The position numbers were made by a program, and so were the translations under genes. Source: a virus. Taken from it: a stretch of DNA of 48,726 nt. The notes beneath the pieces were generated by a model, which worked only from the letters and a program-made list of their open reading frames with translations, had not been told where the DNA came from and searched no databases. The stretch is from IMG/VR virus record IMGVR_UViG_3300045988_078204, one strand, 5' to 3'. Shown in pieces: positions 25,954 to 38,689 of the stretch; the stretch's first letter is position 1; each line of letters starts with the position of its first letter.

Positions 25954-28668
25954 GTGACAGCAGAAGAATTATTAAAACAAATGTCAGCCGAACCGTTTGC
26001 GGAAGAGATGGTCTGTTGCGTTATTGATCCGGAAACAAGGGTCATTGATGTTCCGGCAGAATACCAACTTCTCGGTGTCGAATCTGATGAGAAAGTGGAG
26101 CGGATGTATTTCCAGTGCCCGAAGATTGTCGGAGACAATATTGACCTGTCCAAATTGGCTTTGCGTGTCAATTTCCGGAACGCAAACGATCAGAAAGATC
26201 AATACATTGTGGATGATGTAGAAATCTCTGGGGATAACATTACGTTTTCGTGGCTCCTTTCCAGACGAGTGACGCAGTATAAGGGTAACGTCAGCTTTAT
26301 TGTGTGTGCGGTGAAAGCATCAGGGGAAGAGATTACAAATGAATGGAATACTACGCTTGCAACAGCCCAGGTTTTGGAAGGTCTGGAAGCAGATATTACA
26401 CTTCCGGAAGAAGATACGGATGTGGTAAAACAGTTAATCGCTGTTGCGACACAGAAAATTACAGATGTACAAAATGCAACTTCTTCCGCCAATACCGCGG
26501 CCAGCAACGCAGATATAAAGGCACAGGAGGCCGCCAACGCCGCCGAGGATGCCCGTGGAGTGATAGACCAGATCACGAAAGACAGTTATCTCCACACGAC
26601 TACGCAGACGTTTGTAGATACGGTGAAAGCGAGTCCTACCGCCTATGGAAACGCCATCCCGGAACAGATTGAGGGGTACATCAAACAGGATACGACAAAA
26701 GGGTTACAGTTGTTTGATGCTTCATGTCTTTCAGCGTCAAAAACACAGGGAGGAGCTACGGTCGTCAATAACGGAGACGGTAGCTTTACGGTTAGCGGGG
26801 ATGGGAATTTGACGGAAAATTTTAGTATGTCTTATAACTTATCACACGAAGATAGCTTGAAGCTATTCCCTGTTGGAACTTATCAGATTACGAGAAAACA
26901 GATTAGACCATCGTTTTTTGTTCAAATCAGAGGAGGCAGGCAACATACAATTTCGAGTATTAGCAAACCTGGCGATGTACTGTCTATATTAGAAGAAGAT
27001 ACGCAGAATCCTGATTATTATATACAGTTCTTATTTTATGGCAACGCTATAGACACGATTAAGCCCGGTACAATCAAACCGATGGCGTGGGCTAGTGCCG
27101 AAGTTCCTCAAGACGCAGATTGGGAACCCTACACTGGAGGACAGCCTTCCCCGAATCCTGACTATCCTCAGATTGTTCATGGTGTCGGGGATATGGGATT
27201 CTTTGATGGGGAACTTGTGCAAGGCTCATACAGAATAGCAGACGGTTCTTTCGGATATGGCGATAGAAGATATATCAGTAATGCAAATAAAATACCGTGC
27301 CATCAAGGAGATATGGTGACGCTACAATATGACGGTGATTGCAACGGCGTTTATATTCATTTTTATAAACAAGATAATAGTTTTATACAAAGTAAAAATG
27401 TGGTTGGAAATAAAGTTTCATTTGTAGCTCCGACAGGTACGGGATATTGTAATATAACGATTTACAAAGCAGATAGTATTTTTGTTGCATCAGCCAAACA
27501 CATTACCGTAACCATCAATGATAAATACGCCGTATGTGTCAAATCTAAGGGAAAGAATTTGCTTAATTTAACCGGAGAAATACTATACAGCTTCGGAAGA
27601 GAAACTATTTTTGACAACCAAGTAACAATAAAGCCAACTACAGACGGCAGGACAGCTCCCGGAGTTTGGTTCGTTTTAGGTGACATTAAAAAGTTTTTAG
27701 GAAAAACAATATACGTCAAAGCTGATGCTATCCAGCGATCCGGTAATTATAATCCCCGAATGTTGTTAATGACGATAAAGGGTAATACATCCGTGCGTAC
27801 CTATTTAACATATTCGTATAGCAAGGCCGGACAGGTGATGAGTGTTAAAATACCAGATGACTTGGATACAAACGAAGCATCTGATTTGGCTTTAAATATG
27901 TATGTAAATGACGGATCGTCGCAGGTGGATGCTGACGCATATGCGATATTTACAAATGTCTATGCCGGGTTGTCGGAACCCACTAACGAATTCGTCCCTT
28001 ATCAGTCCAATGTAACGTATATCCCTGTCGATTACCCGCTGTTTGAGGGGGATAAGATCGTAAGGCGTAATGGGGAGTATAAGCTGTTAAGGAAATGGAA
28101 ACAGGAGGTTTTCGATGGTTCGGAAGATGAGGGTTGGGTGCAAGGTAAATCCAACACAAATCAATTTTATACTAGTCAATACAAAGAAAAGAAAGTAAAT
28201 GCCGATATAGTATCAAATCGATTTAAACATGCTACCTCTGTTGAACCGCCATCGATATGGATTGGAAACGACATTAATATATATTTTGAATCTGGATACT
28301 TAGACAATAATACTATAGCCGGATTTCAAGAGTGGTTACAAGAGAATCCGGTTTCTTGTGTCTATGAACTAGCCACACCAACCGAAGAACCCCTTTCATC
28401 CGAAGCCATGAAAGCCCTATACAGCATCATGGCATGTGATGAGGAAACGGAGCTGACGATTGTCGGTGTTCCGTCGGATGCGGAAATCCAGAATCAGTTT
28501 TTATTGCCACGAAATGAGGACGGGGCTTTAAACACAACAGCGTATTGCACGGCCAAGCGGAACGAGATTGCATTGGAAGAGCTGGTATCACAGTCACTTG
28601 ATGCACGTGTCAACAAACTCGAAGTTGACAACGAATCGCTGAACTTACAGACACTAATCGTAGAATAA
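25954..28668 (+). CDS. tail fibre / receptor-binding protein
   Basis: 904 aa. GTG start after AGGAGGG. Position and size fit. Confidence 0.65.
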   Translation: MTAEELLKQMSAEPFAEEMVCCVIDPETRVIDVPAEYQLLGVESDEKVERMYFQCPKIVGDNIDLSKLALRVNFRNANDQKDQYIVDDVEISGDNITFSWLLSRRVTQYKGNVSFIVCAVKASGEEITNEWNTTLATAQVLEGLEADITLPEEDTDVVKQLIAVATQKITDVQNATSSANTAASNADIKAQEAANAAEDARGVIDQITKDSYLHTTTQTFVDTVKASPTAYGNAIPEQIEGYIKQDTTKGLQLFDASCLSASKTQGGATVVNNGDGSFTVSGDGNLTENFSMSYNLSHEDSLKLFPVGTYQITRKQIRPSFFVQIRGGRQHTISSISKPGDVLSILEEDTQNPDYYIQFLFYGNAIDTIKPGTIKPMAWASAEVPQDADWEPYTGGQPSPNPDYPQIVHGVGDMGFFDGELVQGSYRIADGSFGYGDRRYISNANKIPCHQGDMVTLQYDGDCNGVYIHFYKQDNSFIQSKNVVGNKVSFVAPTGTGYCNITIYKADSIFVASAKHITVTINDKYAVCVKSKGKNLLNLTGEILYSFGRETIFDNQVTIKPTTDGRTAPGVWFVLGDIKKFLGKTIYVKADAIQRSGNYNPRMLLMTIKGNTSVRTYLTYSYSKAGQVMSVKIPDDLDTNEASDLALNMYVNDGSSQVDADAYAIFTNVYAGLSEPTNEFVPYQSNVTYIPVDYPLFEGDKIVRRNGEYKLLRKWKQEVFDGSEDEGWVQGKSNTNQFYTSQYKEKKVNADIVSNRFKHATSVEPPSIWIGNDINIYFESGYLDNNTIAGFQEWLQENPVSCVYELATPTEEPLSSEAMKALYSIMACDEETELTIVGVPSDAEIQNQFLLPRNEDGALNTTAYCTAKRNEIALEELVSQSLDARVNKLEVDNESLNLQTLIVE

Positions 28669-28683
28669 GGAGGTTGATACAGA

Positions 28684-29160
28684 ATGTACGAAAAATTGAA
28701 GCAGGCAATACAAGACGGGATGTATACAGTTACAGAAGCGGTAAATCTTTTAAATGCATTTTTGCAAACCGGACAGATTACAGCAGACCAATTTACGGAA
28801 TTATTTGAAATGACAAGAGAACTTCCGGCCAATGGGGAAAAAGAAGAATCCGAGATCGCCCAAGATAATAAAGAAAAAGAATGGCAGGAATACAAAGAAA
28901 AGATAGACAAGATGTGGGATAAGTTTACTGAATCTGGCGTAATCATACCTGATCCCGAACCGGAAGAACCGGACGGAAGTAAGGAGCATCCTATCCCGGC
29001 AACCAATAATATGCAGTACTATGAAGGAAAATACTATACCTACAACGATGTATTGTATAAATGTAACCGGAATACAGATATCCCAGTATGGCATACTCCA
29101 GATCAGCTTGTAGGTATTTATTTTGAAATTGTACCGCAGGAGGAAGAGGATGAAATTTAG
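28684..29160 (+). CDS. XkdX-like N-terminus with C-terminal CBM5/12-like motif
   Basis: MYEKLKQAIQDGMYTVTEAVNLLNAFLQTGQITADQFTEL resembles XkdX. YYEGKYYTYNDVLYKCNRNTDIPVWHTP resembles a carbohydrate-binding W/Y motif. Confidence 0.5.
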   Translation: MYEKLKQAIQDGMYTVTEAVNLLNAFLQTGQITADQFTELFEMTRELPANGEKEESEIAQDNKEKEWQEYKEKIDKMWDKFTESGVIIPDPEPEEPDGSKEHPIPATNNMQYYEGKYYTYNDVLYKCNRNTDIPVWHTPDQLVGIYFEIVPQEEEDEI

Positions 29161-29482
29161 AAATTTTAAAGATAGTCTTTCCACATTGGGGGGGGTATAT
29201 TGTGCTATTGAAGGCTGGGGAATCCTGAAATGTGAGAATGCCAATGTTTTAAAAGCTGGAATTTCTACAAAGGTTGGCGAAACCTGTTTGACCGGATATC
29301 CAAAGGGAACAGAGAAAAGTTGGGGCATCCTCATCACATTTGTTGTAGGTGCGGATTTCTCACAGATTTTTTTGAGTTATACAGGAAGTGGGCTGTACAT
29401 ACGTGGCGGTTCCGCATCTGGTGTTGTTGGAACAAAGTGGTATAAATATAGCCGACAATCGGAACAGATTGATTCAATATAA
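29150..29482 (+). CDS. poly-G ORF A (110 aa)
   Basis: ATG 29150 lies after GGAGGAAGAGG. The N-terminus is MKFRNFKDSLSTLGGVY. The G8 tract encodes the GG. The track ORF 29123..29482 is in the same frame. Confidence 0.55.
   Translation: MKFRNFKDSLSTLGGVYCAIEGWGILKCENANVLKAGISTKVGETCLTGYPKGTEKSWGILITFVVGADFSQIFLSYTGSGLYIRGGSASGVVGTKWYKYSRQSEQIDSI
29188..29195 (+). repeat. homopolymeric G8 tract
   Basis: Counted directly. It starts 38 nt after ATG 29150 and is followed by TAT. Confidence 0.9.
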
Positions 29483-29495
29483 GGAGCGTGAAAAG

Positions 29496-29960
29496 ATGAA
29501 GTTTAAAGGAATAAAAGATATTTTGCTGGGGGGGGGGTATGAGATAGATTCTATATATAAAGGTATTGATGGCGGTGGATGGCGCAGGGCTTATAAGATT
29601 TCCAATACAAATCAGGGTGCATATGGATATTGCGGAGAGTTTTGTATTGCTGGACAGTTCAACAATGGGAGTAATGTTTCTATAATATTCAGTGTTGTTA
29701 CCGCATATATGGAAGCAAGTTTGAGAATCCATAATTTTGTTGGGTCCACTGTTATAGACAAAATAAGGATAACAAAAAATAATGATACCGACGAACTAAA
29801 TATTGATTTTCACTATAATACCGTAACCGCAAATGTGTATGGATTCAAAAAAATATCGGGATACAAACAGAATAGTTCGAAGGAATCATATGCGGATTTT
29901 AAGGTTGTACCAAGTCAACCAGATAGCGAGACCATTATGACAGAAGTAATTGTACAGTAA
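29496..29960 (+). CDS. poly-G ORF B (154 aa)
   Basis: ATG 29496 lies after AAGGAG. The N-terminus is MKFKGIKDILLGGGYE. The track ORF 29388..29960 is in the same frame. Confidence 0.55.
   Translation: MKFKGIKDILLGGGYEIDSIYKGIDGGGWRRAYKISNTNQGAYGYCGEFCIAGQFNNGSNVSIIFSVVTAYMEASLRIHNFVGSTVIDKIRITKNNDTDELNIDFHYNTVTANVYGFKKISGYKQNSSKESYADFKVVPSQPDSETIMTEVIVQ
29528..29537 (+). repeat. homopolymeric G10 tract
   Basis: Counted directly. It starts 32 nt after ATG 29496 and is followed by TAT. Confidence 0.9.
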
Positions 29961-29972
29961 GGGAGGAAAATT

Positions 29973-30080
29973 ATGCAGAAAAAGAAGATATCTGAAATTC
30001 TATCGGGGGGGGGAGGGTATCTCGATGGGGGGTATCCGGCGTACTGGAAGAAAGTGACGGAGGAACCACTCTATTTGTAG
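29973..30080 (+). CDS. poly-G ORF C (35 aa, possibly a truncated third paralog)
   Basis: GGGAGG lies 6 nt before ATG 29973. Reads MQKKKISEILSGGGGYLDGGYPAYWKKVTEEPLYL. Confidence 0.35.
   Translation: MQKKKISEILSGGGGYLDGGYPAYWKKVTEEPLYL
30005..30013 (+). repeat. homopolymeric G9 tract (a further G6 at 30027-30032)
   Basis: Counted directly. It starts 32 nt after ATG 29973. Confidence 0.9.
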
Positions 30081-30134: not shown

Positions 30135-30335
30135 ATGAAGATTTATGATTTTACCATACTGGAATTAAACTATTTCCGGACATATTGTAATTTTACAGAC
30201 GACGAGCGGACATTGTTTGAGTATAGAGCTAAACAATATCCGCTCGAATACTGTGCTGAGTTAATGAATGTGAGTATATCCACAATCAAAAGATTAAGCA
30301 GAAAAGTAAATAACAAGATTATTCGTGTATGCTGA
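30135..30335 (+). CDS. small sigma-region-4/LuxR-like HTH protein
   Basis: 66 aa. FTDDERTLFEYRAKQYPLEYCAELMNVSISTIKRLSRKV looks like a region-4 HTH. Confidence 0.5.
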   Translation: MKIYDFTILELNYFRTYCNFTDDERTLFEYRAKQYPLEYCAELMNVSISTIKRLSRKVNNKIIRVC

Positions 30336-31161: not shown

Positions 31162-31899
31162 ATGATGAGTTCAGGTATGAGTGCAGCGGATGTAGCTGTG
31201 CTTACAGGTAATGCCGGAAATTCCCGTGGCTGTAATGATGGCTTCGGCGGAGAGGGTTGGGGATGGATTTGGCTTATCCTTATCTTCGCAATTTTTGGAG
31301 GCTGGGGAAATGGTTTCGGCGGATTTGGAGGAAACGGCGGAGGATTTAATACTCCTGGTTTCCAGGGATACGCAACGCGTAGTGATATAGATTCTGCGCT
31401 CTCTACTCAGGGTATTGAGTCTGGAATCAATGGAATTGGAACACAGCTTTGTAATGGTTTTGCTAGTGTTAATTCCAATATTAGCAATCTTGGCTATCAA
31501 TTACAGGATTGTTGCTGCCAGACACAGAGAGCGGTCGACGGTGTGAATTATAACCTTGCCGCACAGACAAACATTTTGCAAAATACCGTAAATAATAATG
31601 GAAATGCAATTCAGCAGGCTCTTTGCAGCGGATTTAGGGATGTGATCGACGCACAGAACGCCGGAACACAGAGGATCGTTGATCTGTTTACTCAGGACAA
31701 GATCCAGTCTTTACAGACTGAATTACAGTCCGCACAGCTCCAGCTCAGTAATGCAGCGCAGACAACAAACATTGTCAACGCATTGCGTCCTACACCGGTT
31801 CCGTCTTATCCGGTAATGAGTCCGTATACGTCTATCATCAATCCTACGGGATTCACATTTGGCGTAAACGGCTGTGGATGTAATACGTGTGGTTGTTAA
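31162..31899 (+). CDS. Gly-rich, single-TM, Cys-rich hypothetical protein
   Basis: AAGGAG RBS. The GFGGEGWGWIWLILIFAIFGGWGNGFGGFGGNGGGF segment is hydrophobic and Gly-rich. It has 10 Cys, including DCCCQ and the C-terminal GCGCNTCGC. A strong terminator follows. Confidence 0.65.
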   Translation: MMSSGMSAADVAVLTGNAGNSRGCNDGFGGEGWGWIWLILIFAIFGGWGNGFGGFGGNGGGFNTPGFQGYATRSDIDSALSTQGIESGINGIGTQLCNGFASVNSNISNLGYQLQDCCCQTQRAVDGVNYNLAAQTNILQNTVNNNGNAIQQALCSGFRDVIDAQNAGTQRIVDLFTQDKIQSLQTELQSAQLQLSNAAQTTNIVNALRPTPVPSYPVMSPYTSIINPTGFTFGVNGCGCNTCGC

Positions 31900-32010: not shown

Positions 32011-32421
32011 ATGATTGAATTACTTAACCCGACGCCACAGACCGTAGCGCCTGGACAGGGCGTTGTTTATTCCGAAGAAATTTCAAGTAAATGTTCCGCA
32101 GAACGCCACAGAGCCGGAAGCGCCCAGCTTACTCTTGTTAAACCAGGACGCTATCTTGTTGGATTCAGTGGAAATGTAGCAATTCCGGCAGGTGGAGTAG
32201 TTGGCGAGGTGTCTCTTGCCATTGCATTAGATGGGGAGCCAATCACTGGATCAGTGATGCGAGCCACTCCGGCGGCAGTATCTGAATACTTTAATGTAGC
32301 TACTCAGCACTATATTGATGTTCCGTGTGGATGCTGTCAGACGGTGACTGTACAGAACACAGGTGTTGCAGCCGTACAAGTTGATAATCCAAACCTTACA
32401 GCAGTCAGGGTATGCGGTTAG
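32011..32421 (+). CDS. hypothetical beta-rich protein, possibly a BclA-C-terminal/C1q-TNF-like jelly roll
   Basis: ATG 32011 lies after AAAGGAG (the track starts at TTG 31990). The pattern LVKPGRYLVGFSGNVAIPAGGVVGEVSLAIALDGEPITGS...TVTVQNTG...NLTAVRV resembles exosporium BclA C-terminal-domain topology. Cys motifs PCGCCQ and RVCG. Confidence 0.5.
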   Translation: MIELLNPTPQTVAPGQGVVYSEEISSKCSAERHRAGSAQLTLVKPGRYLVGFSGNVAIPAGGVVGEVSLAIALDGEPITGSVMRATPAAVSEYFNVATQHYIDVPCGCCQTVTVQNTGVAAVQVDNPNLTAVRVCG

Positions 32422-35469: not shown

Positions 35470-36645
35470 TTAAGCCCTTTTTTTATAATCGTTTGCGACA
35501 CGTTTGTAACACGGTATCTTTTCTATCTCTTTCCTCAAATCTTCTAAGCTTCTGTGTCCATAGATGGAATTAGTAATGTCACGAAAACTATGCCCCAACA
35601 TTCGTTTTCTGTCATTTTCGCTTACTTTGTATTTTTCACATAACATAGAAAAGGTGTGTCTGCAATCGTGGGCCGTATGTTTTCCAATACCTATACTTTT
35701 AAGAAATTCTGAAAGAGATTTATTAAAAGCGCTGTATGATATTCCCATGAGAGATCCTTTCTCATTTAGCCGATCTTGTACGATAGGGAGTATGGAAGAG
35801 TGGATGGGAACAATCCTATTTTTCCCGGCATCTGTTTTTAGTCCCCCTGAGAAGCATCTCTTTTCTAAATCTACGCTAATTACAGATAATTCACCAATGC
35901 GATAGCCAGAATAGCACATAATTAGAAGAAGCTGGGCAATATAGTTATCAGCATGTTCCCAAAGCCTTTCCAGGTCACGTATATTAAACGGAACTCCGTG
36001 TTCATCATCGTCTGGAATGTTAATCCTTAAAAGCTCTGTAGGATTTTTTTCTACTAGATTTTGCGCCAATGCATAACGATATATTTGCTTTAAAAGAGAA
36101 ACGATTAATTCCAAACTGGCATGTTTTAACTGGCAGGAGTCCACAATACGCTGAAGCTGTTCATATGTTATTTCTCCTATTTTTTTGTTATACAAAGCTT
36201 TGCAGTTATTATAAGCTGTTCTTGTTGCTTGTTTAGAGCTTGCGGAGTATTTCTTTTTCCCGTTAAATTTCCAGTTATAAAATTGGTCATACAGCTCTGA
36301 AAACAGCAATTCTTGATCGTTGGAATTTGAGCGAACTGCTACGTTATAATTTGACAGGATTCTATTTGTAAATTCGGCTAGGTCTCCATCTTCCTGCCCT
36401 CTTAATTGTTCCAGATCTTTTTCCATACCCGGTTTATATGTTCCGGCTTTGTACGCTGTCAATACAGCAAATCCAACGTACCAGTCTGACACATAGCAGA
36501 GTGCTTTTTTCATAATCGGTTTTCCATCTACTGTGAATTCTGTAACTGGTGGATGTACAGAGTACGGGTTTCTCCTGTTCCCGGAGAGTTTGCGGATCGT
36601 TCCGTAACCGTTCGGAAGGTTCGGATGCTTTTTCTTGTTTGCCAT
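35470..36645 (-). CDS. int: tyrosine integrase
   Basis: 391 aa. The C-terminal catalytic pattern is ...AHDCRHTFSMLCE...MLGHS....SIYGH (R, HxxR, Y). Confidence 0.85.
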   Translation of the reverse strand: MANKKKHPNLPNGYGTIRKLSGNRRNPYSVHPPVTEFTVDGKPIMKKALCYVSDWYVGFAVLTAYKAGTYKPGMEKDLEQLRGQEDGDLAEFTNRILSNYNVAVRSNSNDQELLFSELYDQFYNWKFNGKKKYSASSKQATRTAYNNCKALYNKKIGEITYEQLQRIVDSCQLKHASLELIVSLLKQIYRYALAQNLVEKNPTELLRINIPDDDEHGVPFNIRDLERLWEHADNYIAQLLLIMCYSGYRIGELSVISVDLEKRCFSGGLKTDAGKNRIVPIHSSILPIVQDRLNEKGSLMGISYSAFNKSLSEFLKSIGIGKHTAHDCRHTFSMLCEKYKVSENDRKRMLGHSFRDITNSIYGHRSLEDLRKEIEKIPCYKRVANDYKKRA

Positions 36646-38630: not shown

Positions 38631-38689
38631 GTACTTTTACCTCTTTTCTATATATTTCCTACGTGTTTTTTTTTAGAATTCCTTTTTAA

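Follow-up and report, generated by a model that had tools for sequence, protein, structure and literature searches.

Poly-G tracts as likely slipped-strand contingency loci in a tail-module cassette array of a Sellimonas intestinalis prophage

Downstream of the tail fibre gene in IMG/VR record IMGVR_UViG_3300045988_078204 lie three consecutive small ORFs, here termed A, B and C, each carrying a long run of G residues shortly behind its start codon. Do these runs act as slipped-strand contingency loci and, if so, what do they switch? A first-pass annotation, made from the sequence alone, had proposed contingency loci controlling tail-tip or adsorption accessory proteins of a Gram-positive siphophage. 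Comparison with related genomes supported the first part of this proposal, and we consider it likely that the poly-G tracts represent genuine contingency loci of the slipped-strand type, located in a cassette array of the tail module, with the reservation that neither read-level nor phenotype data are available. The adsorption function of the cassettes is an inference without expression, virion or adsorption data. The features are listed in Table 1, where "the window" denotes the whole stretch of 48,726 nucleotides analysed.

Table 1. Features of the tail fibre and cassette region (positions in the window)
Feature	Position	Strand	Remark
Tail fibre gene, 904 aa	25954..28668	+	phrog_6782 tail fiber protein, E 4.8e-14; TMP, Dit and Tal genes precede
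158-aa partner gene	28684..29160	+	conserved; stop overlaps ATG of ORF A (ATGAAATTTAG)
ORF A, 110 aa	29150..29482	+	poly-G-switched orphan gene
Tract A	29188..29195	+	G8 in the window, ON
ORF B, 154 aa	29496..29960	+	poly-G-switched stand-alone tail-fibre-type beta-sandwich domain (predicted)
Tract B	29528..29537	+	G10 in the window, ON
A7 run inside ORF B	29847..29853	+	possible secondary slippage site
ORF C, 35 aa	29973..30080	+	leader and tract, no domain body
Tract C	30005..30013	+	G9 in the window
G6 run	30027..30032	+	near-stable; right-hand junction common to every cassette arrangement

Placement of the G tracts and frame logic of the proposed switch

A scan of the whole window (41% GC) revealed four G runs, all in the cassette region, and no other run of at least six G or C. 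Since 7.5–8.8 G runs of this length were expected under an iid or first-order model, G runs are depleted outside the cassette region and concentrated inside it. The motif GGGGGGGG gave 6 matches compared to 0.72 ± 1.12 in 100 dinucleotide shuffles, none of which (0/100) got to 6, and the probability of four random sites landing within 845 bp was about 2e-5. Among 17 large genes of the window, GGG is a minority glycine codon with a share of 18.5%, and GGGGGG encodes none of the 29 Gly-Gly pairs found there. In ten related loci of 8.5 kb each, the tracts were likewise the sole G runs of six or more. The tract coordinates and lengths given by the first-pass annotation held exactly, as did its statement that no other G or C run exceeded about 6 and that the clustering was non-random.

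The tracts occupy codons 12–16 of ORFs A, B and C and begin 38, 32 and 32 nt from the respective ATG, within the 32–38 nt claimed before. With eight, ten and nine residues they meet the first mark of a contingency locus, namely a homopolymer of about seven or more bases in or just upstream of a coding sequence. The arrangement of a G(n) tract followed by TAT or TAC was retained in five diverged leaders, and the bases behind the tract are read in differing frames: GTA TAT in ORF A, TAT in ORF B and GGT ATC in the alternative cassette P0010. Two details of the annotation failed: ORF A reads Gly-Gly-Val-Tyr instead of the Gly-Gly-Tyr claimed after each tract, and in ORF C the G9 run is followed by AGGGTAT and not directly by TAT.

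Simulation of tract lengths showed that ORF A is full length at G8 or G11, other lengths yielding 20–26 aa, and that ORF B is full length at G7 or G10, other lengths yielding 14–17 aa; the consequences claimed for one G more or fewer were thereby confirmed for both genes. The corresponding ON products are 110/111 aa and 153/154 aa, and both in-frame lengths are common. For ORF A, the 110-aa form was present on 549 contigs and the 111-aa form on 94. Database versions of ORF B measured 79, 83, 153, 154, 184 and 190 aa, with 153 aa (G7) on 236 contigs and 154 aa (G10) on 104, while the 83-aa (304 contigs) and 79-aa (286 contigs) forms were the internal-start products expected from a broken ORF B. 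The abundance of ON alleles that lie three bases apart implies repeated return to frame by passage through the OFF state. A second mark of contingency loci, toggling between full-length and truncated products with both states found in nature, was thus met by simulation and by the observed ON and OFF alleles.

Tract-length variation among related prophages

Comparison of tract lengths in related genomes had been set beforehand as a test, and it was positive: the lengths vary, and the tracts are also retained in homologs. The comparison set comprised about 30 related contigs, mostly prophages of Sellimonas intestinalis (Lachnospiraceae), with up to 100% identity outside the tracts. In otherwise near-identical contigs, tract A was present as G7, 8, 9, 10 and 11, while tract B ranged over G6, 7, 8, 9 and 10 and tract C over G8, 9 and 10 among the related contigs; in one further case (L018) an A>G change fused tract C with the following GGG to give G14. 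The G6 run was G7 in just two contigs (L018, L031) and G6 in all others. Eight contigs (L016, L017, L003-5, L007-9) aligned to the window without any mismatch over 815–1335 bp, with gaps at the tracts only. These data fulfilled a third mark, length variation among near-identical genomes far above the substitution background, and show that tract length evolves much more rapidly than the adjoining sequence, leaving the genes either in frame or cut after 14–26 codons.

Consequently, each gene is found ON or OFF independently of its neighbour. In a census of 16 contigs retrieved without regard to tract state, ORF A was ON in 6/16 and ORF B in 8/16. The A/B states were ON/ON in four contigs, ON/OFF in two, OFF/ON in four and OFF/OFF in six; all four combinations occur, in line with independent switching of ORFs A and B. 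No selection for the ON state was evident, as the OFF fraction of ORF A was near the two thirds expected under neutral drift.

Several short contigs start or stop exactly at a tract. Such breaks are what length heterogeneity within a sample would cause, a possible and indirect hint in the absence of read data. Some Mb-size contigs may represent long-read assemblies, in which homopolymer lengths are error-prone, and L029 and L031 look suspicious in this respect. One of these, L031 (allele P0046), also showed a frameshift at the A7 run of ORF B, resulting in a 125-aa product ending ...GFKKNIGIQTE. The A7 run might hence be a secondary slippage site, but this rests on one observation on a Mb-size contig and assembly error could explain it.

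Host, gene neighbourhood and cassette proteins

The host is S. intestinalis, a Gram-positive human gut Lachnospiraceae species, and the phage a temperate siphophage or prophage; the host was assigned from cluster names and the phage type from the gene order (TMP-Dit-Tal-fibre, followed by holin and amidase). The claim of a Gram-positive siphophage therefore held. In contrast, the 158-aa gene upstream of ORF A, claimed to be XkdX-like, gave no match to Pfam XkdX (PF09693) at E<=0.01, and its PHROG matches are all of unknown function. The assembly collection lists the exact 158-aa protein in 2382 blocks, and the gene is always located upstream of poly-G cassettes. In an unrelated phage (L020), a 140-aa homolog precedes the poly-G ORF, and a weak XkdX match falls on a separate 49-aa gene distinct from this homolog. 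The sequence 3' of ORF C varies between prophage backbones: a 1503-aa tail protein lies downstream of the cassette in L001, L024 and L032, while an endolysin and the prophage end follow directly in L022, L026 and L029. A promoter and terminator scan of the region yielded nothing above shuffles, and the "terminators" called at 29176-29195 were merely tract A. Searches of IMG/VR with ORF B, the 158-aa protein and an alignment recovered a single contig, two scans of GTDB species-representative genomes gave no match, and blastn of the region returned marginal matches alone, all outside the cassette.

None of the three ORFs had a match in Pfam or PHROGs, tblastn of ORF B over a set of 50,697 deposited phage genomes and a sequence search of the PDB with the same protein were equally negative, and the ORF B domain has no Pfam family. 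A profile of this domain collected 34 representatives at E<=1e-3, spanning residues ~19–150. The unnamed domain repeats the motif GWYRV...IDKIRYT...DIHY...PSGETV beside DUF859/phrog_372 regions and occurs two to three times in tandem in large proteins. Regions of the DUF859/phrog_372 "tail protein" type are present in two of the tandem-domain proteins, P0009 and P0015; a match to phrog_3639 "minor tail protein" was obtained for P0013, whose genomic context was limited to a 2-kb contig. A distant stand-alone homolog (P0022) is devoid of a tract. An early AlphaFold2 (AF2) run of ORF B with 4 sequences was poor (pLDDT 57.9), rendering the PDB search from that model meaningless. A 36-sequence domain alignment, on the other hand, led to a model with pLDDT 89.2 and pTM 0.83, which found 45 BFVD matches at E<=1e-3, the named ones being tail fibre, tailspike and S74 proteins. 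The best E value against predicted tail-fibre structures was 8.7e-11 with TM up to 0.70; matches to tail proteins in the PDB were weak (E 7e-3, TM 0.51 or less). Homology and predicted fold strengthen the tail-accessory role claimed for ORF B, which we regard as likely, with virion location, binding and a role in adsorption remaining inferred.

ORF A resembles ORF B over the first ~55 aa only (BLASTP E 0.003), and hhalign against the ORF B domain profile gave a probability of ~1%, so that the domain feature was not met and homology beyond the leader and these first ~55 aa is unsupported. As no relation to tail proteins was detectable, the tail role claimed for ORF A is a possibility backed by position alone. 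ORF C is likely a leader-only remnant of a deleted cassette. Its leader ISEILSGGGG agrees, also at the DNA level (AAATTCTATCG(n)), with that of the full-length P0010 cassette in L019, and ORF C itself is missing or degenerate in L010, L019 and L026. Cassettes of the P0010 type, a fourth kind (L019, L032-L037), bear a tract at the equivalent 5' position that is polymorphic (G7/8/9), and the G6 run persists behind them as well. The homolog in L020 has a G10 tract at the equivalent 5' position, the sole G run of six or more in 10.5 kb, which places the ATG leader and the body of this gene in different frames. The tail module of L020 also holds an RVT_1 gene beside the poly-G ORF, so DGR-type and poly-G devices may coexist. 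A C9 run in L024 (1504-1512) is a possible further candidate for a module of this kind.

The MK...L..GG leaders prompted a comparison with double-glycine leaders of class II bacteriocin or pheromone precursors, for which one would expect a short leader with an invariant Gly-Gly at its end, secretion of a small peptide and a C39-peptidase ABC exporter nearby. This reading was rejected: the Gly count varies with the tract (GG or GGG), ORF B is predicted to be a 154-aa tail-fibre-type beta-sandwich, and the neighbours scanned, which make up only part of the window in which an exporter could lie, are tail, regulatory and lysis genes.

Alternative explanations, working model and related systems

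Several alternatives to contingency loci were considered. The tracts could be hot spots of mutation in accessory genes that are dispensable, with OFF alleles as ordinary pseudogenes heading for loss and no adaptive reversible switch. This view is consistent with OFF frequencies close to neutral drift (A 10/16, B 8/16), with deletion alleles of A, B and C in L011, L012 and L026, with ORF C as a remnant already and with the lack of selection on prophage late genes within a lysogen. However, a neutral run should be erased by interrupting substitutions or synonymous Gly codons, while an interrupted tract was seen only once in about 30 contigs (tract A of L013, GGGTGGGGGGG) and a long unbroken G run persists at the equivalent 5' position in five diverged leaders and two phage lineages. 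G runs are avoided across the remaining genome, and the abundance of alleles three bases apart again speaks for repeated return to frame. We thus judge the hot-spot explanation unlikely.

Also unlikely is the assumption that the ORFs are prophage-expressed morons acting on the lysogen, e.g., by superinfection exclusion or a surface change, in which case lysogens and not virions would be phase-variable. In its favour, the cassette occupies the tail-to-lysis interval, a frequent moron site, and is directly followed by the endolysin and prophage end in the three prophages mentioned above; moreover, every tract variant seen came from prophage or metagenome DNA, which the host replicates. Against it, the cassette shares its strand with the late tail genes and a start/stop overlap with the upstream gene, no promoter-like or terminator-like excess was found, and ORF B is homologous to tail-protein domains with a tail-fibre-like predicted fold. 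Signal peptides or membrane segments were not evident on reading the sequences.

Sequencing or assembly artefacts at G homopolymers, with an invariant real sequence behind them, are very unlikely. Homopolymers are the chief error of long-read assemblies and are harder for Illumina too, several contigs have low coverage (cov 2.4-4.2), and contigs frequently break at the tracts. Yet the length differences reach 3–4 bases, G7/G10 of ORF B and G8/G11 of ORF A are each supported by tens to hundreds of contigs of independent origin (NCBI, JGI, ENA, Logan), and the adjacent G6 is near-invariant in those assemblies. Contigs of short-read style (SPAdes-style NODE, Logan SRA) showed an equal range, with platforms judged by name only. 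Programmed recoding by transcriptional slippage or ribosomal frameshifting, which would make the protein at any DNA length, is also very unlikely: long homopolymers can induce RNA polymerase slippage and this could soften the OFF state, but the DNA length itself varies, which recoding does not need, and the alternative frames stop within 1–10 codons and hence encode no second product.

Returning to contingency loci as the preferred reading, we propose that the tail-fibre module of a temperate S. intestinalis siphophage contains a series of small late genes, each laid out as a ~12-codon leader (MKF..KD.L.. or similar) followed by the poly-G tract. Slipped-strand mispairing during prophage or phage DNA replication would alter the tract length, which would drift freely in the lysogen since the late genes are silent there. 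On induction, a clonal lysogen population would release virions with differing combinations of accessory proteins. ORF B, like the alternative cassettes P0003, P0010 and P0006, would represent a stand-alone copy of the beta-sandwich domain that would elsewhere form distal repeats of phage tail proteins. Such proteins would most likely decorate or cap the tail fibre and alter adsorption or host range as a form of bet-hedging, the short leader helix and Gly linker serving as a putative flexible attachment; ORF A would be an orphan governed by a like switch.

Hypermutable poly-G tracts have been described in Campylobacter phages (Sorensen et al. 2021, Cell Rep 35:109214; PMC12823448 ref 58), where they give "phase variable RBP expression" (PMC10579305). 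Both systems place poly-G inside genes of the host-recognition module (here inferred from position and, for ORF B, homology and predicted fold), change of length shifts the frame on or off, and several switchable genes per genome create, or here would create, a mixed phage population. The poly-G-bearing Campylobacter phages are virulent myoviruses. Here, by contrast, a temperate siphovirus resides as a prophage in a Gram-positive gut commensal of the Lachnospiraceae, and the switched genes are tandem small stand-alone cassettes (110-155 aa) that have a common leader-plus-tract module at one 5' position and are exchanged between prophage backbones. No experimental phenotype exists here, and as to RBP or tail-fibre identity, only ORF B is linked to tail-protein repeats and a tail-fibre-like fold, ORF A lacking such a link.

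Polymerase slippage at simple-sequence repeats in ORFs of T2/T4 and other phages likewise produces frameshifts that can revert, and thereby heterogeneous populations (Gomez, Barrick and Waters, bioRxiv 10.1101/2025.10.21.683753). The T-even loci are mostly runs of at least six of any base, in all gene classes and more than 100 per genome, with mutant read frequencies of ~3e-4 (bioRxiv 10.1101/2025.10.21.683753), whereas here G/C runs are otherwise absent, three long G tracts (8-10) lie in one cassette array at one codon position, and ON/OFF ratios in the population are near 1:1. Bacterial poly-G phase variation is known from surface genes of Campylobacter, Neisseria and Haemophilus (e.g., PMC9311878 section 4.1.1, PMC10877375) and resembles the present case in a tract of 7-11 G near the 5' end of the coding sequence and, as inferred here, in slipped-strand mispairing with stochastic ON/OFF states. 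Unlike these, the viral locus belongs to late structural genes that are silent in the lysogen, so that any selection acts on the virion generation and not on the cell. DGRs (Bordetella BPP-1) and invertible tail-fibre segments (Mu G, P1 C) share the position at the 3' end of the tail module and the presumed diversification of the receptor-binding end from one genome, but the region has neither a reverse transcriptase with template repeat nor an invertase with inverted repeats.

To our knowledge, experimental poly-G phase variation of phage host-recognition genes is not known outside Campylobacter phages, and for contingency loci in general, the demonstration in T-even phages and a small number of other virulent ones is recent. 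A known poly-G principle now appears in a very common prophage of human gut Lachnospiraceae, to judge from the 2382 blocks with the 158-aa gene, and in a distinctive architecture of tandem small cassettes sharing a portable switch. As S. intestinalis is cultured, with isolates behind records such as RGE52608.1 and NSJ25106.1, the system lends itself to direct experiments. Should the cassettes indeed alter adsorption, the assembly breaks at this locus would be explained, temperate gut phages would hedge their host range without DGRs or invertases, and caution would be called for with gene callers, which split or drop such poly-G-switched genes. A bolder reading, to which we give slightly less credence than to its opposite, is that a widespread family of gut-commensal prophages uses a modular "leader + poly-G" switch before interchangeable tail-fibre accessory cassettes, one lysogen thereby giving rise to combinatorial virions (A+/-, B+/-, alternative cassettes) with different receptor specificities. 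If true, temperate phages of Gram-positive bacteria would here have their first example of a contingency-locus tropism system, one in which drift would accrue in silent lysogeny and be read out only at induction.

Poly-G tracts and their genomic setting

A count of all homopolymers in the window (48,726 bp, 41% GC) revealed only four G runs of six or more, and no C run of this length anywhere. From base or dinucleotide composition, 7.5–8.8 G runs ≥6 and about 0.5 of ≥8 were expected; the remaining genome is thus poor in G runs, and the 845-bp stretch with the four runs is strongly enriched. Four random sites would land inside 845 bp with P of about 2e-5, and GGGGGGGG matched six times in the window, compared with 0.72 ± 1.12 in shuffles. 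Among the Gly codons of 17 large genes in the window, only 18.5% were GGG, and GGGGGG encoded none of 29 Gly-Gly pairs, so that the poly-G tracts exceed what protein sequence alone would give. The tracts begin 38 (ORF A), 32 (ORF B) and 32 nt (ORF C) past the ATG. When tract length was altered in silico, only G8 or G11 gave a full-length ORF A and only G7 or G10 a full-length ORF B; every other length led to a stop after 14–26 codons. The first-pass annotation had reported G8, G10, G9 and G6 runs, the tracts lying 32–38 nt past the ATG, with present lengths that keep ORFs A and B in frame; both the positions and the frame analysis held.

Features of the window
Feature	Position	Strand	Remarks
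Large terminase	8532
Portal	9793
Major head protein	13769
Tape measure	17687
Dit	21116
Tal-like	22639
Tail fibre	25954-28668
158-aa gene	28684-29160
ORF A	29150-29482	+	110 aa
Tract A, G8	29188-29195		read from sequence
ORF B	29496-29960	+	154 aa
Tract B, G10	29528-29537		read from sequence
A7 run	29847-29853		inside ORF B
ORF C	29973-30080	+	35 aa
Tract C, G9	30005-30013		read from sequence
G6 run	30027-30032		read from sequence
Small sigma-factor-region-4-like HTH gene	30135-30335		66 aa, phrog_1190; directly 3' of ORF C
Several genes without known function			3' of HTH gene, 5' of holin
Gly/Cys-rich protein	31162-31899		245 aa; C-terminal end GCGCNTCGC (phrog_16490)
136-aa protein	32011-32421		weak BclA C-terminal (C1q-like) domain match
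Holin	33692
Amidase	34168
Integrase	35470-36645	opposite
T9 run	38666-38674		longest homopolymer outside cassette; between two minus-strand lysogeny-region genes

The window is a temperate siphovirus genome. By portal protein, the nearest deposited phage was Dorea phage DO134P1 (65%), and the hosts of other relatives were all Bacillota. NCBI members of the ORF A/B protein clusters were named Sellimonas intestinalis, with contigs of up to 3.3 Mb, indicating a host among the Lachnospiraceae and a prophage state of the element. Since the 158-aa gene ends in a stop codon that overlaps ORF A's ATG and no excess of promoter-like or terminator-like signals was seen, the three ORFs appear to belong to the late tail operon, a probable assignment inferred from sequence context. 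An identical 158-aa protein occurs in 2382 assembly-collection blocks, always 5' of poly-G cassettes (leader, tract and body) and across three prophage backbones. PHROGs without known function match its C-terminal ~55 residues, as does a crAss-like phage record (cr1_1); the protein may be the docking partner. The 245-aa and 136-aa genes between cassette and lysis genes are both odd for this interval.

Tract length in related loci

At the protein-cluster level ORFs A and B had very few relatives, yet the clusters were large. Related DNA was gathered by exact-protein look-ups, with a nucleotide pattern taken from the conserved leader of ORF B and from IMG/VR; a further set, blind to tract state, was gathered via the exact 158-aa neighbour. 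Eight contigs showed zero mismatches to the window over 815–1335 bp (BLASTN), the sole differences being gaps, all at tracts. Every length from 7 to 11 was seen for tract A and from 6 to 10 for tract B; tract C measured 8, 9 or 10 (14 in contig L018, via an A>G change), and the G6 run was 6 everywhere except in contigs L018 and L031 (7). Among 16 contigs collected blind to tract state, ORF A was in frame in six and ORF B in eight, the A/B combinations being ON/ON in four, ON/OFF in two, OFF/ON in four and OFF/OFF in six (ON, in frame; OFF, frameshifted and truncated). Only distinct neighbourhoods are returned by the look-up, so these counts cannot be read as frequencies. Tract length is hypervariable and sets whether each ORF is open, and the states are independent between ORFs.

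By cluster membership, in-frame ORF B was represented by 153-aa (G7, 236 contigs) and 154-aa products (G10, 104 contigs), with upstream-extended calls of these alleles in 114 and 51 contigs; the 83- and 79-aa internal-start products expected from a broken ORF B occurred in 304 and 286. In-frame ORF A was found as 110 aa (G8, 549 contigs) and 111 aa (G11, 94 contigs). As the two common in-frame lengths lie three bases apart, lineages went out of frame and came back.

Several short contigs start exactly past tract A or stop at tract C, the behaviour typical of assemblers faced with reads of conflicting tract length. Gene callers yield at least ten different ORF B 'proteins' (67–190 aa; window 29388-29960, database entries P0001 and P0040-P0053), according to the tract length and the start codon chosen. 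Annotation and assemblies alike are broken up here by the poly-G switch. Allele P0046 (contig L031) is frameshifted exactly at the A7 run, leaving 125 aa; this is either a second slippage site or, the contig being of Mb size, a mistake in the assembly. Allele P0002 of ORF B lacks 78 nt without loss of frame, P0005 is a fusion removing most of ORF A, and contig L026 has lost most of B plus C (deletion alleles located at L011:1160-1170, L012 and L026). Structural instability in the cassette region is not confined to the tracts.

Cassette proteins and cassette exchange

A search with the ORF B profile through 1.84 billion representatives returned 34 matches at E<=1e-3, mostly large proteins in which the domain (residues ~19-150; motifs GW(Y/R)R, IDKIRYT, DIHY and PSGETV) is present in one to three tandem copies. 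In two of these, Flg_new repeats accompany regions of DUF859/phrog_372 ('tail protein'); another one fits a minor tail protein PHROG. The domain was absent from Pfam and had no sequence relative in the PDB. An AlphaFold2 model from a 36-sequence domain alignment predicted a confident beta-sandwich (pLDDT 89.2, pTM 0.83), with flexible residues 1–17 comprising a short helix (5–10) and then the Gly tract. Foldseek against predicted viral structures returned 45 matches at E<=1e-3 (best 8.7e-11, TM 0.66-0.70), those with names being tail fibre, fibre, tailspike, Peptidase_S74 and gp37 proteins; PDB matches were weak and of similar type (tailspikes, Kp9 fibre, T4 gp9). ORF A shares with ORF B only the leader and weak similarity over ~55 residues (E 0.003); it did not match the domain profile and is therefore an orphan. 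In ORF C, leader and tract run straight into the common right-hand junction (G6-TATCCGGCGTACTGG); the ORF is missing or degenerate in several relatives; we read it as the probable relic of a deleted cassette.

The tract is kept across diverged cassettes. In contig L010, flanks of 97–99% identity enclose P0003, a 61%-identical allele that takes the place of ORF B, with an unchanged leader and G7. Another cassette, P0010 (150 aa, 34% identity with ORF B), sits 3' of the 158-aa gene in L019 and L032-L037; its leader MKFKEIAQILSGGG bears G9 (ON), G7 or G8 (OFF). L020 represents a different phage (46% GC, ChW-amidase endolysin), in which a 140-aa homolog of the 158-aa gene precedes the ORF B homolog P0006. 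Its ATG leader MTFKSLASALIRGG... bears G10, the sole G run ≥6 in 10.5 kb, and is out of frame with the body at this length. In all these cassettes, as in ORFs A and B, TAT or TAC comes after G(n), and the reading frame varies: GTA TAT (A), TAT (B), GGT ATC (P0010). What is conserved is a DNA motif, not a peptide. The more distant stand-alone homolog P0022 (25% identical) lacks a tract; the switch therefore belongs to this subfamily, not to the domain. At least three kinds of prophage backbone carry the cassette block: that of the window, one with a Peptidase_S74 fibre and the endolysin directly 3' of the cassette, and one with a 1503-aa tail protein 3' of it. Endolysin or 1503-aa protein there takes the place of the 66-aa HTH gene of the window type.

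Two further observations concern other tail modules. That of the unrelated, P0006-bearing phage contains an RVT_1 reverse transcriptase gene (L020:5512-6708), probably a diversity-generating retroelement beside the poly-G switch. In another Sellimonas-type prophage (L024, contig logan:SRR12650319_3672), two large tail genes flank a 64-aa ORF with a C9 run ~59 nt past its GTG start (L024:1504-1512), the sole C run ≥6 in that 8.5-kb locus and possibly a further contingency tract.

Alternative explanations and proposed mechanism

Neutral decay of dispensable genes is unlikely in view of the conserved, uninterrupted tracts and the n/n+3 alleles, but cannot be excluded. That the ORFs are a moron expressed from the prophage is very improbable given operon structure and fold. 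A sequencing artefact is very unlikely: length differences are large and recur across sources and assemblies, while G6 is stable in the same assemblies, although individual Mb-size, possibly long-read contigs (L029, L031) may bear errors. Recoding at G runs is likewise very unlikely, since tract length varies at the DNA level and the other frames lead nowhere.

The feature is real and follows a known principle. Nearest among known systems are the poly-G tracts, also hypermutable, in Campylobacter phages (Sorensen et al. 2021, cited in PMC12823448 and PMC10579305); the T2/T4 contingency loci, described recently (bioRxiv 10.1101/2025.10.21.683753), come close too. The feature differs from these in host phylum, temperate lifestyle, the concentration of the genome's only G tracts in one array, the leader-plus-tract module common to the ORFs, and cassette exchange. 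The full-text literature searched yielded no description of a poly-G switch in Sellimonas or other Gram-positive prophages.

The first-pass annotation had proposed slipped-strand contingency loci after the tail-fibre genes, to be checked, among other ways, by comparing tract lengths in related genomes. The comparison bears this reading out: lengths vary, and the evidence for the switch itself is good; the adsorption role and true switching within a clone remain inferred, without experimental data. From established knowledge of contingency loci, length changes would arise by slipped-strand mispairing at replication. The cassette genes would be silent in the lysogen, so that tracts could drift during host growth and be read out at induction, a scheme that agrees with the near-neutral ON fraction. 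Judging from context and fold, the products would be late tail-fibre accessory proteins, and the payoff may be a mixed virion population.
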